Source of the DNA: Eledone cirrhosa
Taxonomy: Eukaryota
NCBI GenBank assembly: GCA_964016885.1
Contig: OZ024746.1
Span: 93,124,001 to 93,188,000 of the forward strand
Length of the DNA stretch: 64,000 nt
Direction: 5' to 3'
The position numbers and the translations under genes are program-made. Shown here piece after piece: positions 11,945 to 62,887 of the stretch (its first letter is position 1; each line of letters begins with the position of its first letter). The notes below the pieces were generated by a model. That model was not told where the DNA came from. It made no database searches and worked only from the letters and a program-made list of their open reading frames with translations.

Positions 11945-12100
11945 ATGGATTCTATTTCTCTGTCATCATCAAGGATTTACTCACCTGTCTTTTCACCAAA
12001 CACAGAAATCTCTTGCAACAGTCGGAATTCCTCTTTACCGAGAGGAAACGTATATGGCGGTATCCCAGTGAATTTATTGCTCAATGTTATTGGCTGGCTG
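11945..12100 (+). CDS. TMEM63: TMEM63/CSC1-like channel, first coding exon (exon begins at 11854 with 5'UTR)
   Basis: Acceptor ttttgtttcag at 11853; in-frame TAG at 11927 upstream of a strong-context ATG (acaATGG); encodes MDSISL...NVYGGIPVNLLLNVIGWL (TM0 of TMEM63); donor gtgagt at 12101, phase 0. Confidence 0.9.
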
Positions 12101-18562: not shown

Positions 18563-18645
18563 GTTCTCCTTTTATTGTTCTCAATCTTGCGGAGATTGGC
18601 ATGGGACTATGGCAGAATTGCTCTCGTCAGTCGCAACGAAGACAA
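18563..18645 (+). CDS. TMEM63: TMEM63 coding exon 2
   Basis: ag|VLLLLFSILRRLAWDYGRIALVSRNED|gtaagt; contains the TMEM63 hallmark AWDYGRxALV; phase 0 to 2. Confidence 0.95.
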
Positions 18646-19013
18646 GTAAGTGCAATTAATTTTCTTTTAATTTCCATTTGTATTATTCTGTTACTGGCTT
18701 CAGTTGGTAGACTACGGCCATTCTGGGGCACCACCTTGGTTTTAGTTGACCATATCAACCCCCATTACATTTGTTTTAATTTGATGATCTCCTTTTTGTC
18801 GAACTTCTAGGTTACAGGACGCACACACGCACACATACAGAAATGACTTCTACAGGACTAGAACTGTTTCATTCATATGAAATCAAGCCAATCGTGATGA
18901 TTTTTATATGTAATAAAGATGCCTGTGCTCTACCAATATATTGAGTACCTTTTTTAACTCTGGTTACCCCCTGAGACAACTTGGGAACCTATGTATGTAT
19001 ACGTGTGTGTGAG

Positions 19014-19068
<55 letters not shown>

Positions 19069-19076
<8 letters not shown>

Positions 19077-19728
19077 ATACTTTGGGAGGGTCATGTTGCC
19101 AATAAGAAACACACGCACCAGTTGCTTTCACTTCAATTTATTATAATAAATTTATAAATTTAGGAATTTATAAATTTCCGGTTGGTTGGTTCCACAACCA
19201 GATGATTGTTCATATATTGTCAAAGTTCTTTCGTCACACATTCTGTGACCTCTTCAGTGACTGGGGATTCTTTTCCAACCAAAATTAAATAGAAAACATG
19301 AATGGAACAGCAACATCACAACTTACAATTAAGGACAAAATGAAAACGCACACACACATAGAACAAACAACCAACCAGTAACATGTAAATAAACAAATAA
19401 ATAAACAAATATAAACACACACAGACACCCGGATGTAACACATGCGCAAACTAAGCACACAACACACACAAAAACAAGATGGCGTAGGACAGAACAAAGG
19501 AGAGGCACAAAAACAAAGAAAAGAATCCCCAGTCACTGAAGAGGTCACAGAATGTGTGACGAAAGAACTTTGACAATATATGAACAATCATCTGGTTGTG
19601 GAACCAACCAACCAATCGGAAATTTATAAATTCCTAAATTTATAAATTTATTATAATAAATTGAAGTGAAAGCAACTGGTGCATGTGTTTCTTATTGGCA
19701 ACATGACCCTCCCAAAGTATAACAATAT
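19069..19728. repeat. Long inverted repeat (arms about 19069-19274 and 19518-19728), probable Penelope-like element terminus
   Basis: Near-perfect arms of about 205 bp next to (TA)n; the terminal gttatatttgggagggtcatgttg motif recurs near 10367, 21075/21250 and 21429/23118; contains a hammerhead motif. Confidence 0.8.
19532..19574 (+). ncRNA. Minimal type I hammerhead ribozyme-like motif (mirror copy on - strand at 19219-19261)
   Basis: gtca-CTGAAGA-g-gtcaca(gaatg)tgtgac-GAAA-g(aa)c-TT-tgac: core boxes, 6-bp stem II, minimal stem III, 4-bp stem I. Confidence 0.6.
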
Positions 19729-21639
19729 CGGTTTCAACACACGTTTTCAGATAAAGAATCTTGCTAAACAAATTCAGAAACAAAATATATATATAAAAAT
19801 GCAAAAGGCAAACAGAAATAACAAAGCAAACAACACAGTACAATGAAGAAATATATTATTAGTTTTACGCTTGAAATAGTAGGAAAAGAGCCTTAACGTT
19901 TTGGACTCTAGTCCTTCATCAGAAAATAGAATGAGAAATTAAAGAAGAAATAGAAAGAGAGAGGAGACTTGGCAGTGGCAGAAACAAGAAAACACACACA
20001 TGCCAGTTTCTGCAAAGGCAATTTTGAAATTGTTTGCCCATGACTGATATAGCCTATGATAGGATGCTTGTTTTAATCTTGATTTGTTAAACTAAATTAC
20101 ATTCAGAGGAAGTATTCAATGGTTATGCCCCTTTACATTTTCAATCAAAATCCAGCCCAGTTCCATAAATTAATAATATCCTGTACCACATGAAACCACA
20201 TTAGCAAGATATTTTCGAAAAATACTAAGCAGCACTATGACTGCACTACATTAAAATTTCCAATACTTTAAAACTGTAAAAAGAATTCACAACAGTCTGA
20301 TCACCAATAAAAATACAATAAACATTTGACTAAACAAACCTATTTTAAATTATTTTTTGCTAAATCCTTACAGGATGTTAAGAGTTAACCTTTATTTGTA
20401 TGTTTATTTATTCATCATAACCACATAGCTTAGTGGTTAGAGTGCTAGGCTCCCAAATATAAGGCTGTGTGTTCAATTCTTGAACTGGGTGATACATTGT
20501 GTCTATGAACAAGACACTTTGTTTCACATTGTTTCAGTAAACTCAGCTGGTAAAGATGAATTCTGATGATACTTATGTCAAGTTATATCAGCCTTTGCCT
20601 TTCTTTTGGATAACATTGGTGTTGTGGAGAGGGAAGACTTACACACATGAGCCTCTGCTGGTCTTCCCAAAAATACACTGACCAGGCTTGTGCCTTGGAA
20701 AGGCATATCTATAGTCAGTCATGACCAGAGACATAACTAGGGATAATAGCGCCTATGGCAAGCAGTGAAATTGCACCCCTGTCCAGCTCTATTTTTTACC
20801 TATGGGCCTTAATAATTTAAATAAATGGTTTAAAGATCCAGCCACCATAGTGTTCTCACCCATGATAGAGACAGATCATACATCTGAAGGAGTTTCTTTT
20901 TTCACTCTTTGCCAAGGCTTATTTGACTTTAATAAAACGTGTGCCTAGTCCAAGTGGCGCCCTCTTCATGCGGTGCCCATGGCATGGGCCATGTTTGCCA
21001 TACCTTAGTTACATCTCTGGTCAGACCAAAGGGAGCACTTTCCTATTCATTTATCTCAATAGTATTCTTTTTATTGTTATATTTGGGAAGGGTCATGTCC
21101 TAATATTGTCAAAAATAGTAAAACACACTGTTTATTTTGGTTTTCGCTTCAGTATATTTTTATGTTTTTATGAATACCAAACCAAACAGTGAGTGTGTTT
21201 TACTATTTTTTGGCAATATTAGGACAATATGACCCTCTGCAAATATAACATCTGTTTCAACACATGATTTCATACCAAAAAAGTATTTGTTTTATTTGGT
21301 TTCAAAGTTTCAGTATTTTTGCTTTCTTTTAAATACTATAAGATATTTTAATTTGAAGAATTTTATTTTTTGTATGATTTTAATGATTTATTTATATTTG
21401 TTTTGCAAGATTCTTGATGTGAGATTTTGTTGTACCTTGGGAAAGTCATACTGCCAATGAAAAACATACAGTAGTTGTATTATACTCAATTAGATAATTA
21501 GTTAATTAAAGTGAAGGTGCATGGCTTAGTGATTAGAGCGTTGGGCTTGTAATTGAGAGCTTGTGAGTTTGATTCTTGGACTGGGTGATGTGTTGTGTCC
21601 TTGAGCAAGACACTTTATTTCACATTGCTCCAGTTCACT

Positions 21640-22788
21640 CAGTTGTTTTAGTGTCACTGCTCTTGTACTGGTGAATAGCTGTTTTAGTATCACTGTGCTT
21701 GTTGTACTGGTGAATAGCTGTTTTGGTGCCACTGCTCTTGTACTGGTGAATAGCTGTTTTGGTGCCACTGCTCTTGTACTGGTGAATAGCTGTTTTAGTG
21801 TCACTGTGCTTGTTGTACTGGTGAATAGCTGTTTTGGTGCCACTGCTCTTGTACTGGTGAATAGCTGTTTTAGTGTCACTGTGTTTGTTATACTGGTGAA
21901 TAGCTGTTTTGGTGCCACTGCTCTTGTACTGGTGAATAGCTGTTTTAGTGTCACTGTGTTTGTTGTACTGGTGAATAGCTGTTTTGGTGCCACTGTGCTT
22001 GTATTGGTGAATAGCTGTTTTAGTGTCAGTGTTTGTTGTACTAGTGAATAACTGTTTTAGTGTCATTGTGCTTGTTGTACTGTTGAATAGCTGTTTTGGT
22101 ATCTTTGTGCTAGTGAATAGCTGTTTTAATGTCATTGTGCTTGTTGTACTGGTGAATAGCTGTTTTGGTATCTTTGTGCTAGTGAATAGCTGTTTTAATG
22201 TCATTGTGCTTGTTGTACTGGTGAATAGCTGTTTTGGTATCTTTGTGCTAGTGAATAGCTGTTTTAATGTCATTGTGCTTGTTGTACTGGTGAATAGCTG
22301 TTTTGGTATCTTTGTGCTAGTGAATAGCTGTTTTAATGTCATTGTGCTTGTTGTACTGGTGAATAGCTGTTTTGGTATCTTTGTGCTAGTGAATAGCTGT
22401 TTTAATGTCATTGTGCTTGTTGTACTGGTGAATAGCTGTTTTGGTATCTTTGTGCTAGTGAATAGCTGTTTTAATGTCATTGTGCTTGTTGTACTGGTGA
22501 ATAGCTGTTTTGGTATCTTTGTGCTAGTGAATAGCTGTTTTAATGTCATTGTGCTTGTTGTACTGGTGAATAGCTGTTTTGGTATCTTTGTGCTAGTGAA
22601 TAGCTGTTTTAATGTCATTGTGCTTGTTGTACTGGTGAATAGCTGTTTTGGTATCTTTGTGCTAGTGAATAGCTGTTTTAATGTCATTGTGCTTGTTGTA
22701 CTGGTGAATAGCTGTTTTGGTATCTCTGTGCTGGTGAATAGCTGTTTTAATGTCGTTGTGCTTGTTGTACTGGTGAATAGCTGTTTTG
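21640..22788. repeat. Minisatellite with 39/36/33-bp variants and a 72-bp higher-order dimer
   Basis: Core gtgaatagctgtttt; all unit lengths are multiples of 3, hence the long ORFs. Confidence 0.95.
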
Positions 22789-23224
22789 TATTATGGCATA
22801 TCATACTGATAATACGCACCATTCAGTGGCAGCTGGGAGGGATGGGGTTAGCTTTGTGACAGACTGTATTCTTAATTGCTTAATATTTCATGAAACTAAG
22901 ATAAGCTTCAGCCTGTGACCAACTCTTGTAAGCATGGAAGAGTGGATCCTAAAACGATATCTCATTTCATTTTCTCTGTTTGCCTCTCAGAACCTAATTT
23001 GACAAACCAATTGATAAAATGATTAATTATTTAACTAATTATCTAATTGGTTAATAAAACTGAAGCGAAAACAACTAGTGCATGTTTTTCTTGGCAGTAT
23101 GACTTCTAAAATACAACATATTTTTATTTCAAAGGTATCGAGGCATTGAATAGATAAAAAGTTGAGAAATCTCAAATGCAGAAAATAATTGTAACCACAG
23201 TCGCCATTGCTGCTGCTGCTGCTG

Positions 23225-23816
23225 TCTCCTTCTTCTCCTTCTTCACCTTCTTCACCTTCTTCACCTTCTTCTTTCCTTCTTCTCCTCCTTCACCTTCTCC
23301 TTCTTCTCCTTCTTCTCCTCCTCTTCCTTCTCCTTCTTCTCCTTCTCCTTCTCCTCTTCCTTCTCCTTCTTCTCCTTCTCCTTCTCCTCTTCCTTCTTCT
23401 TCTCCTTCTTCTCCTCCTTCTTCTTCTTCTCCTTCTTCTCCTCCTTCTTCTTCTCTTTCTTTTTTCTTTTTCTTTTTTCTTTCTTTTTTCTTTTCTTTTT
23501 TCTTTCTTATTTCTTTCTTTTTTCTTTCTTTCTTTTTTTCTTTTCTTTTCTTCTTTCTTTCCCTTTTCCCTTTTCTTTCCCTTTTCTTTCCCTTTTCTTT
23601 CCTTTTTCTTTCTTTTTTCTTTTTTCTTTTCTTTTTTCTTTTTTCTTTTTTCTTTTTATCTTTGTTCTTTCTTTCTTTTTTTCTCTTTTTTTTCTTTCTT
23701 TTCTTTCTTTTTTTCTTTCCTTTCTTTTCCTTTCTTTCTTTCTTTTTCTTTCGTTTTTCTTTCTCCTCTTCTTTTTTTTCTCATTTTTTTCTCCTTTCTT
23801 TCTTTCTTCTTCTTTG
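23225..23816. repeat. Polypyrimidine tract of about 590 bp
   Basis: Almost pure C/T on the + strand. Confidence 0.97.
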
Positions 23817-24671
23817 TCCATTTATTCCTGAGGGGGGTCATGGTGCGCAGAGTCCTCAAACATTCCTTCCAGCTGGTCCTGTCAGAAGCAACCATCTCCA
23901 ACTGATCCCTAAGCATGACCAGCCAAGCTCATGGGTGTTATCCAACCATCTTATTTGGGTTTTACCCCTAGGTCTCCTGGCAGTTCGTTTTGCCCATAAA
24001 ACCTGTCCAGTAAATCTTTCCTGAGACATTCTAACCACATACTCATAGTATCAGAGCTGTAATATCTCAATTTGGAGATATAGTGGCTCTACCTGGAGTG
24101 ACTCTCTGATCTCCGAGCTCTGCACTCTATTGAATAACATTACTTCAAAAACCCTTCGGAGGAATCCCATTTCAGCTGCTTCTATTCGTGATCGTATTCT
24201 TTTGGTCATTATCCAAGATTCATGACCATAGGCACGAATACCAAATTGAAGATAGCAAGTTTGGCTTTTATGCCTACCTCCCTTCTGATTACTGTAATCA
24301 TAGTTGATTCTTCTAAATACCAGCTAGTGGCCACTTTTTTTCCATTTACAGGGGTATTTTACCTGATTTTTAAAACTATTATCTATAGCAATTGACTGTG
24401 CTTACAGTTACTTTCTGCATTTGGGATCTGATTTCTAAGAGTATGTATATTTATTTATCCCATAGTATTTTTTCTATTTGATTTCTAAGCTTCAACATTG
24501 TTTTTCTTTTGATTTCTATGAAATGTTTTAATTAAAAGAATTTTGTTAACTTTTGTATCATTCTAATGACTTGTTTTATTTTGTATTTTTATTATTATTT
24601 GCTTAGTTTTATTTTTGTTTTTCATTATTTTTGGTTCTTTTTATTTTTTTTATTTTTTATTTCTACTACAG

Positions 24672-24707
24672 TGAGCCAGAAAGTGGAACAACAAATGCGT
24701 ATAATGT
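24672..24707 (+). CDS. TMEM63: Candidate 36-nt cassette microexon of TMEM63 (NEPESGTTNAYNV)
   Basis: Long T-rich tract then ctacag acceptor, gtatgt donor; phase 2-2 and 36 nt, so it fits between exons 2 and 3 without frameshift or stop. Confidence 0.65.
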
Positions 24708-25377
24708 GTATGTTTTTTGTTTTGTTGACTTAAGTCATTGAAGCTAATCCTGCTACTATTACTACTACAGCTAACACTACTATTAATACTACAACAAACA
24801 CTACTACTATTAATACTGCAACAAAAACACTACTACTACTATTAATACTACAAACAACACTACTACTACTACTATTGCTGCACTTTATTATGCCTTCTCA
24901 TTTTATATGGTTCTTTTGGTGCTTTATAAACTCCCTTTTAAAGATCCTTCAAATGACTCCCTATAAAGACCTCCTATTTAACCACCACACCTGATAAATA
25001 CATCACTTTAGCTACACCTAATAAATACATCTACTAATTAACCTTTCCCTTGTTTGTATACCTTTATTACAACACTTTAGATAACCGTTATTTTTTTTTT
25101 TACTGGTTTCACTCATCGGACTGTGGTCATACTGGGGCACTGCTTTTAGGGGCTTTTAACTGTTTATATAAGCTGCTGTCTCCTCAACCATTTTACTACA
25201 TATGAACCTCTTCCTATCAGCCAGTTCCTTTCTTTGGTTTCTATCTTTCCTTTCACAATTTTGTTAATACTTCTAAAACTTAGCTTGTTTTAAGATTGTT
25301 GTTTACCATTTCCAGGTGTCATGAGTGGTACATGGTTTTTTATGTAGAGGGTGAGGGAGGGTTGTTTTTATTAGCCT

Positions 25378-25660
25378 CATTATCATCATTATCATCATTA
25401 CAACCATAACTACCACCACCATCAATTCTACCACCACTACTACCATCACCACCATTACCGCCACCACCACTACTGCCATCACCACCATTACCACCATCAC
25501 CACTATTACCACCACCACTACTGCCATCACCACCACTAACATTACTACCACCACTAACATTACTACCACCACTAACATTACTACCACCACTAACATTACT
25601 ACCACCACTACCATTACTTCCACTACCATCACCACCGTTACTACCACCACCACTACCATT
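25378..25660. repeat. Trinucleotide (ACC/ACT/ATC) low-complexity repeat
   Basis: Directly visible. Confidence 0.9.
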
Positions 25661-28600
25661 AACATCTTTCCATATGTCACTAACTCTTTTTACTGATTTT
25701 GTCCTATTATTTCCTATACAGGTTTCCATACATCCAAAACTGCATTAAATCCCTTCTGTTAATGTTCCTCAACCACTCCTGTCATTTTATATACATCACA
25801 TCAGATTACAATACAATAATTGCTTTCTCCAGCTTTCCTCTTCGTTATTAACCCTTTAGCTTTTAAACCGGATATATCCAGCCAGAATTCTTTCGCCTCT
25901 TTTTTTTCAAACTGACTGTAGCCATCCACTCGTATACTGGTGTTAAGGTATTGTTCTCAAAATAAATATCAAAATTTCATAGATTCAGTATTATGTAAGA
26001 TAATTATGTGAGGTAAAGCCTTCATCAGGTAAATATAATAGTAAATATAGAGTAATGTAAATACTAAGGAGGGAGTTAACCATTTAACATTTAAACCGAC
26101 CGTATCCAGCTAGAATTCTCTCACCTCTCTCTGTTCAAACTTGCCGTAACCGGCCATTCATACTGATGTTAAGGTATTGTTTTCAAAATAAATAATATTA
26201 AAATCTCATAGATTTGATATTATATGAGATAATTATGCGAAATAAATTGTTTACCATGAAAATACAATAGTATATATAGAGTAATGTAAATGTTAAAGGG
26301 TTAATCACTTCAGTTTGGTTTTTACATATTTATTGATTACCTTCGATCTCATGAATTTATTGGCTGGTCTACACATTACTATATTACTCTATTACATGTT
26401 CCAGCCAACAGGCTGAGACCAAGCTGGAGCACTGCCATTATTACAAAAAAGGGCTGTGGATTGGCAGTATCAGTAGACTGTCGAACACCATGCTGTTTGT
26501 GACATGTAGTTATGGCTCTTTACAATCCGAGTTCAAATCCCGCTGAGGTTAACTTTGCGTTTCATCCTTGCAGGGTCGATAAAATAAAGTACCAGTAATG
26601 CACTGGGGTCGATTTAATTGACCCCTCCCCCTCCCCAATTGCTGGCCTTGTGCCTTAATCAGAAACCATTATTATAAAAAAAAGAACTAAACGTATATTT
26701 CTGATATCTGTTGTTTTGTCATTGTTACTGTAGCATGGCCTGTAATGGAAATATTTCAGCTGATGTCACCAGCATCGATCCCTCTTCTCCCCCTTCTCTC
26801 TGCTATCCCCATCTGTCTTTGTGAAGCTGCATGGTTTAGTAGTTCATCATCATTTAATGTCTATCTTCCACACTAGCTTGGATTAGACAGGCTGTCCCAT
26901 TTGAAGTAAGTAGAGACAACCCGTCTAACCCATGCTAGCATGAAAGATGGAGATTAAATGATGATGATGATGAATCACTAAACCAGCCAAACACTTCATT
27001 TCACATTGCTTTTCATGATGTGTGTAGGGCGCTCTATAATTAAAATACCCAAGAAATCTCCTACGAGATGCAACCTTGTAGGAGGACACCTGAACTTGTG
27101 AAGGTGTGAGCTGTAACATGATAGAGGTCTGGGGTCCCTATCATTAAAACATCCAAGAAACCTCCTATGACATACAACCTTGTTGAAGGCCAACTAAACC
27201 TGCATAAGTGAGAGCTGTAAATTTTAAAAAATAGATGTGTGTCTGTGAGGGGAGGATTTGAGGGTCAAATTCAAATTGCCACAATAATTTGAGGGATTTA
27301 GAAATATAACTTTCTGGGTTTTGGAACATAACTTAACAAAGGTTCTTACATAAAATTATGATAGATGTTTTTTTTAGATAAATATGACCACTTTTACGCT
27401 ATATTTACTATTGTATTTTTGTGGTAAAGGCTTTCTCTTACATAATATCAAATCTATGAGATTTTGATATCTATTTTGAGAACACTACCTTAATGTCAGT
27501 ACGAGTGGCCAGTTACAGCCAGTTTGAACAGAAAGAAGTGAAAGAATTCTGACCGGATATGGCTGGTTTAAATGCTAAAGGGTTAACATAAGCACTTTAG
27601 TATCATAGAACCTGGGGCAGTTTCAGTTTTTGGTATCGAGAGGGTTAATGTAATTGTAAATGTTTTTGAAATGTTTCATCTCTGAAAATGAATTAAAATC
27701 TTATTTTACCAGACTTGAAAAAATAAGTACTATGGTTAATATGATTGACTGAGTCAAGGTGCAGCTGTAGCATGGCCACAGTCTAATAATAAAAAGTAGA
27801 AATAATTGGCACAGAGTCAGAGATTTTGAAAGAAAATTAGTTGTTTTTCTTTTGTCCTATATTTCTGATCTGATCACAGACAGAATAACTGGCAGTCAGC
27901 CCTCTCTCATTTCTTTCTCTTTCTCACTTTTTTTTTCATCTTCCTCTCTCAAAATGTTTGTCTGCAAGGCACAGCCCAAACACTGCCCTGCTCTAGGCCC
28001 AGAACCCCTCACCATCTCCCCTTCACCCTCCCTTTCTTCTGTGGTCAAGAGTCCTTGCTTTCCCCCTCCCTTTTCTCTCATTTATGGCATTTATAGTCCT
28101 TTACTTTCCCATACAGCTTGATCTGCCTTTCTTTACCCCTTCCCCCTTTTTCTCATTACTTAATTTTTTTTATCTTTCTTTTTCATATTTATGTAATTAT
28201 CAATAGATTTTAAGCCAACTTTGTGAGTTAAACACATGTATTGAACTTAAGTTAGTGTTTTAAAACCTTTTCAGTACCAACTCAACCAAGGCTGTCTCTA
28301 ATTCTTGTACAAAACCCCTCATTTTAAAATGTTAGGACTTCATCACAACTTTATGTCAGACCTTTTATTATTAAATCATGCTCTAAACATGAACATAATA
28401 ATGAAAGAGTTATTTTACTAAATCCCTCTAAATTCTCGATAATTTTTCACAATTAATTGAAAAACATAAACCATCTATTTTACAAAAATCTAGTTATAAA
28501 AGGGGTTAACCTTTTAGTTAGCAACCCAGACCAAACCAGCTCTGGTTCTATGAAATAAAGCCACCCATTTAGGTTTCCAATTTATATTAAAATCTTCCAA

Positions 28601-28935
28601 CATAATTTTATATAGGACCTTTACATTAAGTTACTATCTTAGTTATGATATAATTGATAATTTTAGTAAATTCATCTCTGGTTCTATGGAATAAAGTCAT
28701 TTATTTTAAAGGTTTCCAATTTATATTAAAATCTTCCAACATAATTTCATAAGAACCTTACATTAAGTAATTATCTTAGTAATGAAATAATTAATAATTT
28801 CTTATGTGTATAGAGGAATAGTTGAAAGTGTTTACACCTTATAGCAAAAGCCTTCTAATCTAAAAACTGGTTATATCTACCTTAAGTTTACCCTAAAATC
28901 TTCAAATATACATTGTGTTCTAGCAGAAATAGTCA

Positions 28936-29171
28936 TTAACCCTTTAGTTACCAGCCCAGACTAAACCAGCTCTGGTTCTATGAAATAAAGCCACCTATTT
29001 TAAAGGTTTCCAGTTTATATTAAATCTTCCAACATAATTTTATATAAAAACCTTACATTATATATATCTTAGTAATGAAATAATTAATAATTTTAGTCAA
29101 TCCTTCAAAAGTCTTCATTAATTAATTAAAATAGAGCACATTTCATTAGAAATGTGGTGAGGAAAGGGTTA
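28936..29171. mobile_element. TTAA-flanked MITE family 2; copies at 11300-11815 (three in tandem), 28260-28800, 34080-34572 (SINE-interrupted), 27240-27648 and 48700-49272
   Basis: ttaa|ccctttagttacc ... gg(a/t)aa.aaaggg|ttaa termini; shared interior ctctggttctatgaaataaag. Confidence 0.75.
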
Positions 29172-30746
29172 AAAATAACAACAAACTGAAGAATATAGTT
29201 TACTGTACCATTCCTACAGACTACCTTGACACCATACTGTCTGCACCATGTTGATTTGGCTCCACATAGTTTCTAAATTTACTTCATACTAATTCCAGCA
29301 AATCAATAGGTTTTCATTATTGAGTTAAGGCTGTGACTTGGCAGAAATAGCAAAGTGCAGTGCCAGTCATAACACTTAGTGTCCTGTATCACATGAAACC
29401 ACATTAGCAAAAGATTTTTGAAAAGTGCTAAGCAGTACTATGACAGCATTACAATTAAATATTAAAGTATTTTGTATTTGTAAGTGAAGAATAATATAAT
29501 AATATCATAATATTATTAATATTTGGTTTGTTTACACGTAAACAGCTTCATAAAACAACACGTAGTAGATGACAACGTGGTGTTTTATGAAGCTTTTTAC
29601 TTGTAAATAAACCGAATAACAATATTGGTTTCTGATTTTGGCACAAGGCCAACAATATTTGGGGAAAATCGAATAAATCGACCCCAGTGCATTAATGGTA
29701 ATTTGTTATTGACCCCGCAAGGATGAAAGGCAAAACTAACCTCAGCGGGATTTGAACTTGGAATATAAAGGGCCGTAACTGTATGTCGTTAAGCATGGTA
29801 GCCGACGCTCTACTGATTCTGCCAATCCACTCGCAAATACATTTAGATATCCACCACGTTAAGAGCAAAAACAAATTTTGTTTTAAAGATTTTATTTTAC
29901 AGCAAATGTTCACAATAATCTATCCACAAGTAAAGATACTATAAACATTTCAATTAACAAACTCAGTTTTAGATATTTTCTAAGTCATTACAGGATGTTA
30001 AAAGTTAATACCAATTCTTCTACATTTTTATAAATCTTTGGACAGTATAATCAAACTGAAATAAATAAACTAGTCAGAAATTTGGATAAATAAGTTAAGT
30101 TAACCCTTTAGCATTTAAACCGGCCATATCCGGCCAGAACTCTCTCACCTCTTTCTGTTCAAACTGGCCATAACTGGGTGCTCATACTTATGTTATGGTA
30201 TTGTTCTCAAAATAAATATCAAAATTTCATAGATTTGTGAGATATTGTGTGAGGTAAAGCCTTTACTGTGAAAATACAATAGTAAATATAGAGTAATGTA
30301 AATGGTAAAGGGTTAAAAGGAGGAGATGTACTAAATGCCTACTTTGCCTCCCATTAAATCCAGCCCTGTGGGCACATGTGTCTATGGAATGCTAAGTCAC
30401 TAGCACATTAATTTCATGAGCAGGCTGTTCTGTTGGTTGTACAACTGGAACACTTATTGTTGAAACCGATCCACCATCCTTATCTAATAATAATAATGGT
30501 TTCTACGTTTGGCACAAGGCCAGCAATTGGAAGGGGGGGGGGGTCGATTAAATTGACTCCAGTGCGTTACTGGTACTTTATTTTATCAACCCTGTAAGGA
30601 TGAAAGGCTAAGCTTGGCGAGATTGAACTCAGAAATGTAAAGGGACGAAACTCTGTCACTAAGCATGTTGTCCGACCCTCTACCGAAATAATGATTTCTA
30701 ATTTAAACACAAGGCCAAGGATTTGTGTGGAGGTGAAAGTTGATTA

Positions 30747-32738
30747 TATCAACCCAGTATGTAACTGATACTCTATAATATCAACCCAGTATGTAACTGA
30801 TACTCTATAATATCAACCCAGTATGTGACTGATACTCTATAATATCAACCCAGTATGTGACTGATACTCTATAATATCAACCCAGTATGTGACTGATACT
30901 CTATAATATCAACCCAGTATGTGACTGATACTCTATAATATCAACCCAGTATGTGACTGATACTCTATAATATCAACCCAGTGTGTGACTGATACTCTAT
31001 AATACCAACCCAGTATGTGACTGATACTCTATAATATCAACCCAGTATGTGACTGATACTCTATAATATCAACCCAGTATGTGACTGATACTCTATTATA
31101 TCAACCCCAGTGTGTGACTGATACTCTATAATATCAACCCAGTATGTGACTGATACTCTATTATATCAACCCAATATGTGACTGATACTCTATAATATCA
31201 ACCCAGTATGTGACTGATACTCTATTATATCAACCCAGTATGTGACTGATACTCTATAATACCAACCCAGTATGTGACTGATACTCTATTATATCAACCC
31301 AATATGTGACTGATACTCTATAATATCAACCCAGTATGTGACTGATACTCTATAATATCAACCCCAGTGTGTGACTGATACTCTATAATATCAACCCAGT
31401 ATGTGACTGATACTCTATAATATCAACCCAGTATGTGACTGATACTCTATAATACCAACCCAGTGTGTGACTGATACTCTATAATATCAACCCCAGTATG
31501 TGACTGATACTCTATTATATCAACCCAGTATGTGACTGATACTCTATAATATCAACCCAGTATGTGACTGATACTCTATATCAACCCAGTATGTGACTGA
31601 TACTCTATTATATCAACCCAGTATGTGACTGATACTCTATATCAACCCAGTATGTGACTGATACTCTATTATATCAACCCAGTGTGTGACTGATACTCTA
31701 TAATATCAACCCAGTATGTGACTGATACTCTATAATATCAACCCAGTATGTGACTGATACTCTATATCAACCCAGTATGTGACTGATACTCTATAATACC
31801 AACCCAGTGTGTGACTGATACTCTATAATATCAACCCAGTATGTGACTGATACTCTATATCAACCCAGTATGTGACTGATACTCTATAATATCAACCCAG
31901 TATGTGACTGATACTCTATAATATCAACCCAGTATGTGACTGATACTCTATTATATCAACCCAGTGTGTGACTGATACTCTATAATACCAACCCAGTGTG
32001 TGACTGATACTCTATAATATCAACCCAGTATGTGACTGATACTCTATATCAACCCAGTATGTGACTGATACTCTATAATATCAACCCAGTATGTGACTGA
32101 TACTCTATAATATCAACCCAGTATGTGACTGATACTCTATAATATCAACCCAGTGTGTGACTGATACTCTATAATATCAACCCCAGTGTGTGACTGATAC
32201 TCTATAATATCAACCCAGTGTGTGACTGATACTCTATAATATCAACCCCAGTGTGTGACTGATACTCTATAATATCAACCCAGTGTGTGACTGATACTCT
32301 ATAATATCAACCCCAGTGTGTGACTGATACTCTATAATATCAACCCAGTGTGTGACTGATACTCTATAATATCAACCCCAGTATGTGACTGATACTCTAT
32401 AATATCAACCCAGTATGTGACTGATACTCTATAATATCAACCCCAGTGTGTGACTGATACTCTATAATATCAACCCAGTATGTGACTGATACTCTATAAT
32501 ATCAACCCCAGTGTGTGACTGATACTCTATAATATCAACCCCAGTATGTGACTGATACTCTATAATATCAACCCAGTATGTGACTGATACTCTATAATAT
32601 CAACCCCAGTGTGTGACTGATACTCTATAATATCAACCCAGTGTGTGACTGATACTCTATAATATCAACCCAGTATGTGACTGATACTCTATAATATCAA
32701 CCCAGTATGTGACTGATACTCTATAATATCAACCCCAG
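30747..32738. repeat. 32-bp minisatellite (tatcaacccagtatgtgactgatactctataa), about 62 copies, embedded in a SINE
   Basis: Tandem array with 29- and 33-bp variants; the flanks are the two halves of a - strand SINE. Confidence 0.97.
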
Positions 32739-35700
32739 AAAGATGAAAAGCTAAGTTAAACTTGACAGTATAGGAACTTGGAATATAAATACCGGGAATT
32801 GTCTGGCCCCTTCCTCTTTACACCAGTGGCTGTCTAGACCTCAGGCGTACTTGGACCCTGTATATTTGAGCTCCTCTGCAAGATCGGAACATCAGCGGCC
32901 CATCTGAGGAAGGAGCCCTGTAAGGTGGGGTGGCTGTTGCAGCTGGTGTTGCTGGTCATTGTCAACAGGAATGCTTTTACAGTCTTGTCCGCGAGGCACA
33001 GCCCCTTTATCGCTGCACCCTAGGCCCAGAGCCCAATCATATCCCCCTCCCCCCACTCTTCTGTGACACTAGAGTCCTTGCCATTCCCTCCCCTTTTCCC
33101 TTTTTTTTCTTTATATTTTCCTATTTTACATTTCATTCTTTCTTTTCTATTAAACTGTATTTACATGAAAAAAAAAGAAGAAAAAAAAGAGCCAGAATGC
33201 AAAGCATTTGTTTGGCACTCAAACAATTCTACCAATCTGTTCCCTTTATAATAATAATTTCTTTATTAGCTGCCTGGGCTGACACCATCTTTATAATAGT
33301 TACGGCCCTTCCATTCTGAGTTCAAATCCCGCCGAGGTTAACTTTGCCTTTCATCCTTACGGGGTCGATAAAATAAAGTACCAGTAATACACTGGGGTAA
33401 TATCTGGCCTTGTGCCAAAAGTAGAAACAATTATTACTATTATACTTTCCCATCTTTGTCAAAGACACAAGCAATTTAGTGTTGTAATTAGGTAGTGTTG
33501 GTGCTAATATAAAATGCAATGTCCATTTTATAATGTGGTAGTGCTGGCACCGTGATAAAATGCATCCAGCCCACAATAAAATGTTCTCTGTGTAAGCTGT
33601 AAAGTAGTTGGCATTATGAAGGGCTTCCAGCTGTAGAAACAAAGCTAAAACAGAATGCATGAGCAAGATGTGATCACCTGAACAGTCAACCTCAGAATAT
33701 GACAGCCCATCTAACCTATGCAAGCATGGAAAATTGACAAACAGTGAAGAACAGATATCTTCTATACATATTATTTCTTTATTAATCAATCAAACTCATG
33801 AAACATTACTGTTCCACTTGTCATATTCCGTTTTGCAGATCAATCATAGATAATGTTGTTGATTTTTGTAACCTGCTTAGTAGAGTAAAATTCTGAGCGA
33901 ATCAGTGAGTATTTAGAGATAGTCAAAGATGATAAGTCTGTTATAGTTAGCAAGTTTCTTTCCAAAAACATTGCTTGTTGAAGTGAATGACTATGAAGTA
34001 TATTAATTGTGATGAGAGATAATACTGCTTACTAGTGAAAATTAATGGTTATTTGAACTAGGAAAAACTACAATGATGCTTAACCCTTTTGATACCAAAC
34101 TGTCTAAAACTGGACCTGTTTCTACAATATAAAATTGCTTATTTTAAAGTGTTTATATTTATTTAAGAAATGTCCATCATAATTTTTTTTAAACATTTAA
34201 GTTATGCTCCAAATACCAGCTTAATAATAATTTCTGATTTAGGCACAAGGCCAACCATTTTTGGGGAGGGCAAAGTCGATTAAATCAACCTCAGTGCATT
34301 ACTGGTACTTTATTTTATTGACCCCGTAAGGATGAAAGGCAAAGTTAACCTTGACAGGATTTGAGTTTAGAACATAAAGGGCCGTAACTATATGCTGTAA
34401 AGCATGTTGTCTGATGCTCTACTGATACTGTCAATCCATCATCCTAAGAAACACTTACGTAACAAGAAACTTAATTATATTACTATATCTCTCCAAATTC
34501 TTGATAATTTTCAAAGTAATTTGAAAATTATAGGCAGTGTCTTTCATTAGAAATATAGTAAAGAAAGGGTTTTTAAAGTATAATTGCTACAGACAGTGGT
34601 AAGAAACTCTCAGCAGAAAGTCTTCAGAGAAGAAACCTCCTTCAAGTGAATGTTTCAGCCCTTAACTTCTACTAAATTAATAAAATCAAAAAGAAAATGT
34701 AAAGGAACATTACATAAAAGTTGAGAATGAAGGAATTTTTATTTGTAAGAAATTTATCAATCAGACAGATCATCATCGTCACATCTGTTTCTCCAAGCTT
34801 GCATGAGTTAGACAAATATTTTTCAGCACAGTTTCCCTCCACTTGTGTTCCTTTATCTCCTCTGTGAAGTTCAGAATTCTGAGATCCACTCTTACCACTT
34901 CTGCCCAGGTTCTCCTTGATCATCCTCTACTAGAACTCCTGGCACTTATTCACCTAACAATCATCACCCATCTGCATCACATGGCTACACTGGTGCAGTC
35001 TTCTCTCCTGCACTCAACATCTGATTCTACTTATACTAAATTTCTCTCTCAGATCATCCATTCACATTAACATCATACATCCGTTAAAGCATGCTTGCTT
35101 CATTATAAATATATGATTATCAATTTCTTTACATATTAGCAATTTCATGATCTATAAAAGAAGGCATGTGAATTTTGTGATGTTTATGACTTCTTTCCTT
35201 AAGTGAAACTGTTTGCAACTAAGATTTAAAGCCAGGTTCAAAACCAGGGTTAGATTTATGTATTGAGTTAGGTTCAGGCTGTACCTAGATTTTATTAATG
35301 TTTCTATCAATTTTGTGCTCACCTTCTTTGTATGTTTGTCTGTTTGTCTATCCAACCATCCACCCATCTTTCTTTCCCCCATTCTTTCTCTCTCTCTATC
35401 TTGTATATTTCAGGTTTTACCTTCCTCACTATGTCTATTTGCCTGTCTGATTTTCTCTATGAATGTACCTGTCAATAAATAAAGTATTCTTGTATATGTA
35501 GATATGTATGTGTGTGGGTGGTGGAAATAAACTAGATGTTTGTGTCTACCCAGGCCTCTGTTTTTTTATAATTACGATTCATAATAAAAATTAGAAGTAT
35601 TTAATTTATTGAAAATATATTATTGTATGTAGTATTTTCCTGTTAAACTGATATAATACTCTCTACTTTCTGAGCTATATAATCCTATACAAGTGTCTGG

Positions 35701-35757
35701 AATATTCAACTATTTGAATTACAGTATAATTCAATGATTTTATCAAGTATCTGAATA

Positions 35758-37312
35758 TGTGGCTCTGTTGATCAAGTGTCTGTACAGATGGCTCTGTTGA
35801 TCAAGTGTCTGTACAGATGGCTCTGTTGATCAAGTGTCTGTACAGATGGCTCTGTTGATCAAGTGACTGTACAGATGGCTCTGTTGATCAAGTGACTGTA
35901 GAGATGGCTCTGTTGATCAAGTGGCTGTACAGATGGCTCTGTTGATCAAGTGTCTGTACAGATGGCTCTGTTGATCAAGTGTCTGTACAGATGGCTCTGT
36001 TGATCAAGTGTCTGTACAGATGGCTCTGTTGATCAAGTGTCTGTACAGATGGCTCTGTTGATCAAGTGTCTGTACAGATGGCTCTGTTGATCAAGTGTCT
36101 GTACAGATGGCTCTGTTGATCAAGTGTCTGTACAGATGGCTCTGTTGATCAAGTGTCTGTACAGATGGCTCTGTTGATCAAGTGTCTGTACAGATGGCTC
36201 TGTTGATCAAGTGTCTGTACAGATGGCTCTGTTGATCAAGTGTCTGTACAGATGGCTCTGTTGATCAAGTGTCTGTACAGATGGCTCTGTTGATCAAGTG
36301 TCTGTACAGATGGCTCTGTTGATCAAGTGTCTGTACAGATGGCTCTGTTGATCAAGTGTCTGTACAGATGGCTCTGTTGATCAAGTGTCTGTACAGATGG
36401 CTCTGTTGATCAAGTGTCTGTACAGATGGCTCTGTTGATCAAGTGACTGTACAGATGGCTCTGTTGATCAAGTGACTGTACAGATGGCTCTGTTGATCAA
36501 GTGTCTGTACAGATGGCTCTGTTGATCAAGTGTCTGTACAGATGGCTCTGTTGATCAAGTGTCTGTACAGATGGCTCTGTTGATCAAGTGTCTGTACAGA
36601 TGGCTCTGTTGATCAAGTGACTGTACAGATGGCTCTGTTGATCAAGTGACTGTACAGATGGCTCTGTTGATCAAGTGTCTGTACAGATGGCTCTGTTGAT
36701 CAAGTGTCTGTACAGATGGCTCTGTTGATCAAGTGTCTGTACAGATGGCTCTGTTGATCAAGTGTCTGTACAGATGGCTCTGTTGATCAAGTGTCTGTAC
36801 AGATGGCTCTGTTGATCAAGTGACTGTACAGATGGCTCTGTTGATCAAGTGACTGTACAGATGGCTCTGTTGATCAAGTGACTGTACAGATGGCTCTGTT
36901 GATCAAGTGTCTGTACAGATGGCTCTGTTGATCAAGTGTCTGTACAGATGGCTCTGTTGATCAAGTGACTGTACAGATGGCTCTGTTGATCAAGTGTCTG
37001 TACAGATGGCTCTGTTGATCAAGTGTCTGTACAGATGGCTCTGTTGATCAAGTGTCTGTACAGATGGCTCTGTTGATCAAGTGACTGTACAGATGGCTCT
37101 GTTGATCAAGTGTCTGTACAGATGGCTCTGTTGATCAAGTGTCTGTACAGATGGCTCTGTTGATCAAGTGTCTGTACAGATGGCTCTGTTGATCAAGTGA
37201 CTGTACAGATGGCTCTGTTGATCAAGTGACTGTACAGATGGCTCTGTTGATCAAGTGACTGTACAGATGGCTCTGTTGATCAAGTGTCTGAGTTAATAGT
37301 TCTGTTGATCAA
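35758..37312. repeat. 29-bp minisatellite (tgtacagatggctctgttgatcaagtgtc), about 53 copies
   Basis: Highly homogeneous array with one common T/A variant position. Confidence 0.97.
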
Positions 37313-37416
37313 GTCACCCTGTAAATGAATATTGAGGGAGAGGTAAAATATCTACATAGTAATATATCTATATTCCTGTGGCTACACTAATATATGATCT
37401 CTGTGTTGTGTTTCAG

Positions 37417-37504
37417 GTGGACAACTTTATTCTACTGCAGTCATGATCAAAATATGTCAGGTTCTACAGAATCATTGGATACAACAATTCACTTACAAGA
37501 TCGG
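37417..37504 (+). CDS. TMEM63: TMEM63 coding exon 3
   Basis: tttcag|(K)WTTLFYCSHDQNMSGSTESLDTTIHLQDR|gtaaga; phase 2 to 0. Confidence 0.9.
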
Positions 37505-40055
37505 GTAAGATTGCAACTCACTCTCTTCAAGGTTACGTCCATAATGCAACTCGGGCTCTTCCACAGTGGGATGAATCCCTCCCTTAGCCAGCAATATGTA
37601 GCTACGCCTCTCATCTTATCCCCCCCCCTCTCTTATCACTTCACTGCTTCCCTGGCTTTGACCAAGGACAGAATAAGCATCCTAACATTGTAATGAAATA
37701 TTGATGTTCTCACAAATAAAACAATTCAGTTAACTCTGTAACGTGAAAATGTTAGTGCCACAATAAAAGCACCCAGTTCACCCTGTAATGTGATAGTGTT
37801 GGTGCCACAATAAAAGCACCCACTTCACTCTGTAGTATGATAGTGCTGGTGCTACAAAAAAAGCACCCAGTTCACCCTGTAGTGTGATAGTGCTACAATA
37901 AAACGTAAAGTATTTTCGCGGTAAAAGCTTTATCTCATATAATTAACTCACATATCAAATGTGTGTGATTTTGATGACGTTATTTATTTTGAGAACAATG
38001 CCTTCACATCAGTATGAGCAGCCAATTACTGCCAGTTTGAACAAAAAGAAGCGAGAGAATTCTGGCCGGATACGGCTGGTTTAAATGTTAAAGAGTTAAA
38101 ACATATATTTAGGCTATATATATATACTTACCCTTACTCAAAAGGAGTTATAATTCCTAGACTGAATAAACACTCTTTGTTAAATTGTGTATGTATGAGG
38201 TTTGTCAAAGTATCTGACCTTGAGCTGGGGGGGGGGGGGGTGCTTGGTGGAGTTCAAATACTAATCTATTTTGAAGCAGGTCCCTTGTACCTCTATACAT
38301 TTAGCCCAGTGATCCTTCAACAGTTCAAAGCATGTATAGAATGTTTCTGCTGGATTGACTCTCAGCTCTGCCATTGAAATCCTTTTTGACTCTCAAAACA
38401 GGAACCTTTCAGTGGCATCTTCATTTCTGGGAACAACCAGAGGTCAGAAGGAGACATGTCTGGAAAGTAGGGAGCTTGGTAAATAAGTGAAATACCTTTC
38501 TTTCTCAAGAAACCTTCGTATGGAGGAAAATAGATGTCTCACCCCTTCTCAAAAACATGACTTCTAGTAATGCTAGTTTAAAATAAAGGTTTAAAAGGAA
38601 AGAAACAGAAATTGTTAATGAATTTAATTTTAAATTTGGTTATAATTAATACACATCCCATATTTTAGAATAGGTATATCCTAAAGCTGCATATCATAAG
38701 AGGTAACTATAATGGTTTGCATCAAGAATCTGGCAGTAAAACATTGCTTCAAAATGTTCCATCCAACCCATTTTCTGCATTGAAAAGCAGATGTAAAAAT
38801 GAAGCATGAATTAAGTTATTTGTAAGCTGAGTAAACAATGGCAAATAAGATAGTCACTCCTATATTATGGGTGAATTCATGTTAAGAAAGCTTTTGTTCA
38901 ATTATAGGTTGAGTGTTATAACAGATTGAGAATATCGTCTCAAATTCAGTTGATCCTCCCCTAAAAGGCTATGCTCTAAATATTTAATTTTGTATGCTTT
39001 TTACTGTATTACCCTGACAAAGATACTGTGCCCTAGTTCACCTAGTTGTGAGTAGGTGTTCTGGGTTGAGGATGGGTATAGGTCATTATTGTAAGCAGTG
39101 CAGGCATTGTATAATTAAGTTTTTTAGCATTCAATAATTTAAGCTGAAAATTACAGAAGAAAAACTACATTGGTTTCAATTGAGTTAGTGTTAAAATATT
39201 CTATATAGGGTATTTTAACTCTTAACATTCTATAATGATTTAGCAGAAAATATCTAAAAATAGGTTTATTAATTAAAATATTCATAATATCTTTATTAGA
39301 TTGTTATAAAAATTTGCAGTATTATCCTGTAATGATTTAGCAGAAAATATCTAAAAACAGATTTAAAAATTGAAATGTTTATAGAATCACTGTGAAAATT
39401 TGCAGTAGACTAAAGGCTTCAATTTTTAATGTGATGCAGTCATACTGCTGTTTTTTGTAATTTTCAATAATGTCTTACTAATGAAATTTTGTATAGTACA
39501 AACATTGAGAGTTAAATACCTGACGATAAATTATGTGATGAGGAAAATCAATTTTAGCCAATGACTAAAATTGATTTATTTTGGAAAAAATTGAAGACAA
39601 CTCCAGGCATATTTCAGTTTTATTAAGAGCTTATCTGTAAAGCATAATCATGACCCTATTTGCTGAAGGAATAATGGGAGAGTCACTTGATTAATATACA
39701 GAAATATAATTGGTACAATGAAACTTTGATTAGGAAGACCTATACATGTTATGTTACAGGCATGTGTATCTAGAGCTATAACTACATTGTCTAATGTGAC
39801 TGTCTTTAAGATGGGGATGGTGGAGAGATTTGGCTGATATTTCTAGCAAATTTTATAACCAGATAGAGAGTCCTTCATTTGAATGAAATGGAGCTGCCTA
39901 CTTATGCATTTTTATCTACTAGAATTTTTTTCAACATACTGACACTTATGTGTGTACGTGTGTAGATTGTACACACAAGTTTAGTGAATGTTAGATGCTG
40001 TTTTCTATAGTTTGTCATCACCCCTTCCTTTCTCAGTCATCTCTCTCTCTCTCTG

Positions 40056-42939: not shown

Positions 42940-42977
42940 GGATTTTGTTCATGGATTGCTGCATTTATACGAGTGAA
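42940..42977 (+). CDS. TMEM63: TMEM63 coding exon 4
   Basis: tttttag|GFCSWIAAFIRV(K)|gtaaga; matches the family motif GFCSWLxAxFRxK; phase 0 to 2. Confidence 0.95.
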
Positions 42978-44407: not shown

Positions 44408-44547
44408 AGATGCAGATATTCTTCGCAAATGTGGCCGTGATGCAGTGCAGTATCTGTCATTTCAGCGCTATCTTTTGGTCTATCTTTGTGTAATATGTAC
44501 TCTTTCTACTGCTGTCGTCTTACCAGTAAACTTTCAGGGAAATCTCG
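44408..44547 (+). CDS. TMEM63: TMEM63 coding exon 5
   Basis: ttttcag|DADILRKCGRDAVQYLSFQRYLLVYLCVICTLSTAVVLPVNFQGNL|gtaagt; KCGxDAxxYLSFQR and LPVNF are CSC1/OSCA N-terminal TM domain motifs; phase 2 to 1. Confidence 0.97.
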
Positions 44548-48601: not shown

Positions 48602-48653
48602 TTGGTAATTCCACTGATTTTGGCCACACTACAATTGCTAATGTTGATTCTAG
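48602..48653 (+). CDS. TMEM63: TMEM63 coding exon 6
   Basis: ttttcag|(V)GNSTDFGHTTIANVDS|gtaagt; FGxTTIAN motif; phase 1 to 2. Confidence 0.95.
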
Positions 48654-50356: not shown

Positions 50357-50465
50357 TTCTCAGTTACTATGGATCCATGTTCTTCTTGCCATAATCTACC
50401 TAATGATTGCAGTCTTCTTCATGCAACATTTCTCTCACAGTCTTCAATTTGAAGAAGATGATCAG
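50357..50465 (+). CDS. TMEM63: TMEM63 coding exon 7
   Basis: ttccag|SQLLWIHVLLAIIYLMIAVFFMQHFSHSLQFEEDDQ|gtaatt; LLWxH TM helix; phase 2 to 0. Confidence 0.95.
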
Positions 50466-56041: not shown

Positions 56042-56115
56042 GTTTCCAAGACTTTGATGATATCTAATATTCCAAAAGATAAATGTTTCAAAAGCATTGT
56101 ATTACAACATTTTCA
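56042..56115 (+). CDS. TMEM63: TMEM63 coding exon 8
   Basis: actag|VSKTLMISNIPKDKCFKSIVLQHF|gtgagt; start of the cytosolic domain (TLxIxxIP); phase 0 to 2. Confidence 0.95.
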
Positions 56116-56560: not shown

Positions 56561-56641
56561 AGAGTCATATGAAGATATCACAATTCTTGACATTCAGTTT
56601 GCCTATGACATCACAAAACTTGTTAAATTGGACACCAGTCG
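56561..56641 (+). CDS. TMEM63: TMEM63 coding exon 9
   Basis: ttctag|(Q)ESYEDITILDIQFAYDITKLVKLDTS(R)|gtaagt; phase 2 to 2. Confidence 0.93.
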
Positions 56642-60269: not shown

Positions 60270-60396
60270 GAGAAGAGCACTTGAAGCTAAGGTAAATTCA
60301 GAAAATGAGTTCCACAAAATGGGTCAAAGACCAACTCTTCGTCCATATTATTGTGGTCAGTTTTGCTGTTGCTGTAATAGATGTGGATGTCAAAAG
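60270..60396 (+). CDS. TMEM63: TMEM63 coding exon 10 (Cys-rich loop)
   Basis: ttgcag|RRALEAKVNSENEFHKMGQRPTLRPYYCGQFCCCCNRCGCQK|gtgatt; phase 2 to 0. Confidence 0.93.
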
Positions 60397-62753: not shown

Positions 62754-62887
62754 GTGGATGCTATTGAGTTTTACACAGAAAATGAACTAAGACTTAGTAA
62801 TGAAGTGGAGAGTGAAAAAGTTTGTGCCTATCAAAGACCTCTAGGAATGGCATTCCTTACTCTTGCTACTGATGTCATGGCTGAAAA
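62754..62887 (+). CDS. TMEM63: TMEM63 coding exon 11 (gene continues beyond window)
   Basis: tttcag|VDAIEFYTENELRLSNEVESEKVCAYQRPLGMAFLTLATDVMAE|gtaagt; VDAIxYYT and PLGMAF motifs. Confidence 0.95.

Follow-up and report, generated by a model that had tools for sequence, protein, structure and literature searches.

In the octopus Eledone cirrhosa, the TMEM63 gene carries a 36-nt cassette exon whose inclusion places 12 additional residues, ending in Y-N-V, in the first intracellular loop of the channel. The exon is real, and the evidence as a whole is best explained, with moderate confidence, by an ancestral optional cassette that is the counterpart of vertebrate exon 4 and whose Y-N-V tail would tune the channel.

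The analysed window comprises 64,000 nt (G000:C6:93124001-93188000) of a 3.0-Gb genome, and the gene extends ~38 kb beyond its end. A homology-guided model built over the window and the following stretches (Table 1) contains 24 coding exons and no stop, and is identical to Octopus sinensis isoform X1 at 745 of 802 residues; its exon 22 starts six bases later than in the RNA contig described below, which does not affect the cassette finding. A likely acceptor 15 nt upstream of the first coding exon would imply one 5′UTR exon, and counting it the cassette is exon 4. Membership in the OSCA/TMEM63 family is indicated by full-length homology and by the Pfam domains RSN1_TM, PHM7_cyt and RSN1_7TM; the upstream constitutive exon matches TMEM63 structures, and O. 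sinensis X1 matched TMEM63B structures with an E value of 1e-197. In a quick tree of 28 protein rows, computed without bootstrap and with O. sinensis standing in for this species, vertebrate TMEM63A, B and C formed one clade excluding invertebrates (SH-aLRT 100), which argues against specific orthology to TMEM63B. Judged from this topology, the octopus gene is the pro-orthologue of TMEM63A/B/C. Elsewhere in the genome, an intronless and fast-evolving TMEM63 paralogue, ~30% identical to the main protein, keeps an open frame of 730 codons but has lost WDYGR and WTxLF, and is likely an old retrogene. Dating the cassette by this copy was abandoned, its loop of 57 residues lying between the included (65) and the skipped (53) lengths, with scores of 960 vs 958.

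Table 1. Features of the TMEM63 locus and its surroundings (window positions unless prefixed by G000).
Feature	Position	Strand	Remarks and basis
First coding exon, from ATG	11945-12100	+	homology-guided model
Upstream constitutive exon, end of TM0, WDYGRIALVSRNED	18563-18645	+	phase 0-2; ends AA/GTAAGT
Minisatellite array	21663-22788		69-nt unit
RTE-type LINE reverse transcriptase-like fragment	23859-24323	-	by eye
U-rich tract and CAG acceptor	24572-24671	+	sequence
Cassette exon, 36 nt	24672-24707	+	phase 2-2; sequence, X4 junction, orthologous inclusion/skip pairs
Weak donor TGT/GTATGT	24705-24713	+	U1 consensus match 5/9
Minisatellite array	30746-32735		32-nt unit
Minisatellite array	35742-37290		29-nt unit
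Downstream constitutive exon, WTTLFY...QDR	37417-37504	+	phase 2-0
Next coding exon	42940-42977	+	model; also loose end of X4 contig
Coding exon	44408-44547	+	homology-guided model
RTE-type LINE reverse transcriptase-like fragment	46582-48498	-	by eye
Coding exon	48602-48653	+	homology-guided model
Coding exon	50357-50465	+	homology-guided model
Coding exon	56042-56115	+	homology-guided model
Coding exon	56561-56641	+	homology-guided model
Coding exon	60270-60396	+	homology-guided model
Coding exon	62754-62887	+	homology-guided model
Q/R-site exon	G000:C6:93203698-93203803		beyond window; homology-guided model; Q codon in the region 93203716-93203718
Second optional exon, 39 nt, RAPTDSDEEALYQ-type, C-terminal tail	G000:C6:93215218-93215256		phase 0-0
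Intronless TMEM63 paralogue	G000:C2:283239114-283241306	-	open 730-codon frame

When checked against the sequence, the coordinates, splice sites, 2-2 phase and both peptides that had been given for the exon proved correct. It is delimited by a CAG acceptor (24669-24671) and a GTATGT donor (from 24708), and translation yields SRNED-NEPESGTTNAYNV-WTTLFY upon inclusion and SRNED-K-WTTLFY upon skipping. Thymine makes up 72% of the region from -100 to -3 of the cassette, against 32-54% at the other 23 coding exons, and ~63 nt before the acceptor are free of AG; the donor shares the lowest U1 match among the 23 donors of the gene, and its GTATGT hexamer occurs at none of the other 22. Regulated exons typically have such a combination of a weak donor and a long U-rich tract. 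The 18.8-kb interval has 164 YAG..GT candidates with an open frame and a length of 9-60 nt, and this exon was the only one of them to pass both a donor match of at least 5/6 and a pyrimidine content of at least 75%, thresholds chosen after the exon had been seen. The term microexon applied to it by a first-pass annotation of the window is appropriate under the loose definition (up to 51 nt) only. A neural microexon of the SRRM3/4 (eMIC) type, a class bounded at 3-27 nt and marked by a UGC enhancer just upstream of the acceptor, was excluded by the length of 36 nt and by the absence of the SRRM4-type motif, no TGC being present from -30 to -3. The counts of Rbfox, Nova, MBNL, QKI, PTB and ESRP motifs around the cassette made none of them stand out. 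As for repeats, minisatellite arrays fill much of both introns flanking the cassette, the 29-nt array ending ~125 nt before the downstream exon, and one LINE-like fragment ends ~350 nt upstream of the cassette.

Four sequencing runs contain the downstream exon and none of them is recorded as RNA. Runs X1-X3 behave as genomic at the Q/R exons, and X4 was taken as RNA on two grounds: the contig from it shows splicing at exon borders, and the assembly has a single match to the upstream exon. This contig of 3337 nt covers exactly 37417-37505 without differences; the loose sequence at its 5′ side, before 37417, consists of the final 30 nt of the cassette exon, that at its 3′ side, after 37505, corresponds to the next exon, and four later exons are covered end to end by it, spliced and without differences. 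Since the 5′ loose end corresponds to the cassette, the 24707-37417 junction is real; the 18645-24672 junction is deduced from orthologues. No skip form was found in X4, the only RNA-like run, which gave a single inclusion contig and thus suggests that inclusion was dominant in that sample; contigs drop rarer splice variants, so that this one is blind to minority forms. Judging from its relatives, the cassette is very probably skipped in this species too. The description of the exon as hidden was overstated, as the O. sinensis RefSeq set already has both isoforms.

Nineteen same-species pairs of inclusion and skip isoforms were picked by hand from homologue searches and cluster look-ups. Seventeen of them, spanning five phyla of invertebrates, differ by an insert of 10-18 residues at the cassette point, ending in YN[VI]. 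They come from three Octopus species and a cuttlefish cluster (whose Logan members have no species label), from five bivalves and three gastropods, and from the brachiopod Lingula, the annelid Owenia, the barnacle Pollicipes, the sea spider Pycnogonum and the sea cucumber Apostichopus. The two pairs outside this set come from eel TMEM63B, with an insert of 13 residues, and from a psyllid, with one of 3 residues that lacks the tail. Only the inclusion form was present among the records examined for Argonauta, two nemerteans, krill and the amphioxus Branchiostoma lanceolatum, whose insert ends in YDV, and the insert is absent from both isoforms of the sea anemone Actinia, the sole cnidarian outgroup. 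Among related cephalopods, the insert occurs in the three Octopus species, the cuttlefish cluster and Argonauta. The isoforms of these relatives are mostly automatic annotation, and their intron positions were deduced from proteins. In the cuttlefish cluster, 91 contigs skip the exon vs 33 that include it (two genome records counted), which hints at regulation, either form being able to dominate an assembly.

A census of all collected proteins served as a check on the hand-picking. It comprised 188 proteins with the upstream anchor, 144 of which also had the downstream one, the 44 omitted being mostly vertebrates, and resolved into 78 distinct loops, namely 42 with inserts of at least 8 residues, 28 with none and 8 with 1-7 residues. 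A Y-[ND]-[VI] tail preceded the conserved W-T-x-L-F in 38 of the 42 inserts and in none of the 28 insert-free loops. The residues at the split codon (K/R when skipped; N/R/K when included) were consistent with phase 2. Conservation reached 85-94% in the tail columns and 18-47% in the spacer, in rows chosen as inclusion forms, and the substitutions seen in the tail were conservative (N/D, V/I). Scored against mollusc tails, the non-mollusc tails ranked first to third among the 800-1085 4-mers of their own proteins. The YNV tail was absent from the insect records examined. An RXR motif was present in one of 29 invertebrate inserts examined, that of amphioxus, and the octopus peptide has no Arg, as the first-pass annotation had remarked of its lack of RXR. 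That annotation had left the exon as either ancient or convergent; pairs, tails and census favour the former, at least for invertebrates and amphioxus, and on this comparison the cassette was in all likelihood inherited from the bilaterian ancestor, with amphioxus, nemerteans and krill known as inclusion forms only and a single cnidarian as outgroup.

Other optional segments were also observed. The C-terminal optional exon (exon 23) lies 27 kb past the window end and has inclusion/skip pairs in Octopus and Sepia, and scallops and Mercenaria harbor inserts of 9-14 aa at about its place. Cuttlefish contigs combined exons 4 and 23 as skip/inclusion (69), skip/skip (22), inclusion/inclusion (16) and inclusion/skip (15), counts that leave out one record (P0002) and come from short-read contigs, which cannot phase the two exons. 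In Biomphalaria, the cassette slot contains three or more optional segments, of which only one carries the YNV tail. An S/N variation within the cuttlefish cassette was considered as A-to-I editing and rejected, the direction being wrong if the NCBI record is genomic; it was read as allelic.

In mouse, Tmem63b exon 4 has 39 nt and is skipped in ~80% of brain mRNA, and its skipping is coupled to Q/R editing in exon 20 (PMC7939439). Its RER signal binds COPI and reduces surface expression (PMC9830214); exon 4 is unmentioned in the available portion of the mouse TMEM63B structure paper (PMC11753361). The published primer table, read by hand against the mouse protein, gives exon 4 a 2-2 phase, a Ser skip codon and a GTATGT donor. 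Seven mouse borders (both ends of exons 3 and 5, the start of exon 19 and the ends of exons 20 and 21) agree with the octopus model, the two that flank exon 4 only within one codon, mouse exon 3 being one codon shorter and exon 5 one codon longer than their octopus counterparts; in each species, 15 exons separate the cassette from the Q exon. The 63B junction was placed one codon off by MAFFT and by five of eight pairwise alignments, and in register by two of the eight. When TMEM63C, which keeps L-T-S-L-F-Y-G, was used as a bridge, offset 0 was best for 5/5 vertebrate sequences, a preference that was clear for 63C and narrow for 63B, and 63B and 63C aligned without gaps in 6/6 cases. The TMEM63C offset and the ungapped 63B-63C alignment together resolve the register toward an exact intron match. 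The placement of the octopus exon at the slot of mouse exon 4 has thus held, with phase 2-2 and the same intron to within one codon; in the wider comparison of mollusc and vertebrate gene structures, borders, phase and exon count agree and the peptides do not. Vertebrate exon tails showed no similarity to mollusc tails (eel rank 309 of 868, turkey 211 of 610), and both vertebrate exons examined end in Tyr.

These data would make the cassette a probable homologue of vertebrate exon 4 with its peptide turned over. It is unlikely, on balance, that the invertebrate cassette is ancient and TMEM63B exon 4 a separate exon acquired later in the same intron after loss, as the missing peptide similarity, the one-codon offset in blind alignments and the absence of the insert from the shark TMEM63C isoforms examined could suggest. 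A disordered loop with a phase-2 intron can accommodate new exons, and Biomphalaria has extra ones; moreover, Mantica et al. report that neural exons have arisen extensively and repeatedly in the same genes (bioRxiv 10.64898/2026.09.05.749416). However, a tailed insert is present in amphioxus, a chordate, the phase is the same and the length similar (39 nt vs 30-54), and an insert of 13 aa is present at this point in a partial hagfish record, to which the Tyr end of both vertebrate exons and the donor hexamer common to mouse and octopus add small coincidences. The hagfish insert contains Arg, ends in Tyr and comes after ALLNDND, a TMEM63C-like stretch, which hints at an origin of the exon before the A/B/C split. 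The more ambitious form of the shared-ancestry reading, in which one tissue-regulated TMEM63 switch has persisted since the bilaterian ancestor, with a previously undescribed Y-N-V-W-T-x-L-F sorting motif in invertebrates and amphioxus and ER-retention content in vertebrates, is doubtful; if true, it would place this cassette among very few alternative exons so old.

The way in which an ancestral cassette with a conserved tail may act can be outlined as follows. The weak donor and the unusually long U-rich tract would make inclusion dependent on RNA-binding proteins, from which an inclusion/skip ratio differing between tissues would be expected, and the cassette is likely tissue-regulated. Upon skipping, the short W-T-x-L-F helix would be immediately preceded by acidic residues and K, and inclusion would interpose a variable spacer of 7-15 residues and the near-invariant Y-[ND]-[VI], lengthening the motif to a Y-N-V-W-T-x-L-F segment within the disordered loop. 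This segment could constitute a short binding motif for an adaptor or a membrane surface, altering trafficking; mouse exon 4 alters trafficking through another motif (RER/COPI), and the octopus route would be other than RXR/COPI. The cassette is thus predicted to tune the location of the channel or its ease of opening. In the AlphaFold models of both isoforms, the whole loop has pLDDT below 50 and a short helix covers W-T-T-L-F, starting at V92 with inclusion and at W81 without it, a shift too weak to use, and the low confidence of the loop lends little support to the structural step. A conserved aromatic island in a disordered loop is the usual look of short binding motifs, and on this ground a motif-lengthening switch altering trafficking or gating is favoured. 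An action mainly via trafficking can be proposed tentatively, and one mainly via gating would be a more doubtful proposal. Two known motifs were discarded: a YxxPhi reading of the tail, since this motif requires L/M/V/I/F at +3, where the tail has W, and an LIR-like W-x-x-L core as the switch, which is common to both isoforms.

The optional exon could instead be a mere spacer, or its tail be kept for splicing-level reasons, leaving the isoforms functionally near-equal. The free variation of the spacer in length (10-18 aa) and sequence, the low confidence of the loop in both models, the tail abutting the donor and its loss in the insect records examined would all be compatible with this. It is nevertheless improbable, given that the tail departs from the donor consensus, that its substitutions are conservative and that both forms persist in five phyla.

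The first-pass annotation also connected the exon with the heavy RNA recoding of cephalopods. In that scenario, skipping would be coupled to ADAR editing of the Q/R codon, as in mouse brain, in a cephalopod-enhanced recoding switch. The context of the Q codon (GAG TTC CAG TTT GG) is indeed identical to the mouse primers, with the downstream intron in the same place. However, no cephalopod protein covering the site in the census of collected proteins had R there, and Q was also present in the skip-form cuttlefish sequences, which stand for 91 contigs; no editing-type differences tracking with skipping were found in the cephalopod proteins examined, consensus contigs being able to conceal minority editing. 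The X4 contig displayed no editing over 645 exon bases, in an inclusion form that is unedited in mouse too. Nor was a hairpin detected: the Q exon (exon 20) with its proximal intron folded at z = +1.0, 169 of 200 shuffles being as good, in an analysis without positive control, and the Q codon was covered by none of the 25 longest of 81 inverted repeats. Coupling of editing to the cassette is unsupported in this species and very unlikely, and the link to recoding is not supported either, on the same grounds and because the exon far predates coleoids. Among more distant sequences, about five or six divergent TMEM63 proteins have Arg at the position where ADAR2 recodes Gln in mouse brain (YEFRFG), possibly genome-encoded; they are not cephalopod-like and were rejected as edited cephalopod forms. 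Arthropod records mostly have Pro or Glu at this position.

That the cassette is constitutive here and the database skip forms minor splicing noise, as the unbroken inclusion contig of X4 might indicate, is highly improbable in view of the skip forms recorded in three Octopus species, the 91 vs 33 cuttlefish-cluster contigs, the weak donor and the loss of rarer variants from contigs.

No description of invertebrate TMEM63 splicing or of conservation of this cassette was found in the literature searched. TMEM63 is not mentioned in the main text of Mantica et al., although the supplementary exon-orthogroup tables may contain the cassette; in that survey of 20 bilaterians, only two neural exons were ancestral under strict criteria (bioRxiv 10.64898/2026.09.05.749416). 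Cephalopod splicing was reported to be highest in neural tissue, in a paper whose available portion does not mention TMEM63 (PMC9699675). The examined supplements of cephalopod papers had no TMEM63/CSC1 rows, and their small coverage deprives this of evidential weight. The database isoforms and the published mouse exon were already known, and what appears new, from the sequence comparisons, is the shared exon and its tail. Alternative exons rarely survive across phyla, and this one is optional in database pairs of five invertebrate phyla and probably in vertebrates, which makes it well suited to the question of whether a splice switch can outlive its peptide. For channel biology, it draws attention to a near-invariant motif within a loop for which disorder is predicted, and suggests that the two-isoform TMEM63 switch goes back much further than the mouse work would imply. 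The evidence argues against the cassette being part of cephalopod RNA recoding.

Among known systems, the neural microexons of APBB1/2/3 and MADD are likewise short, frame-preserving and bilaterian-wide (bioRxiv 10.64898/2026.09.05.749416). They measure 6 and 9 nt, are included in neural tissue and occur in insects, whereas the TMEM63 cassette has 30-54 nt, is absent from the insect records examined and lacks the UGC motif, and its mouse counterpart is skipped in brain. The same insert is present in RefSeq/GenBank isoforms of invertebrate CSC1-like/TMEM63 proteins (e.g., XP_029637639 and XP_029637641), which are automatically annotated and in which it is known only through isoform X numbers. 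The closest likeness is mouse Tmem63b exon 4, which belongs to the same family and lies in the same IL1 loop between TM0 and TM1, with phase 2-2, 39 nt against 36 in the octopus, the same donor hexamer and an equal number of exons up to the Q/R exon. The mouse exon is skipped specifically in brain, is controlled by Nova and is coupled to the Q/R site (PMC7939439; PMC9830214). Its peptide is rich in Arg and Glu and contains the RER retention signal, whereas the octopus peptide has no RXR and ends in YNV.
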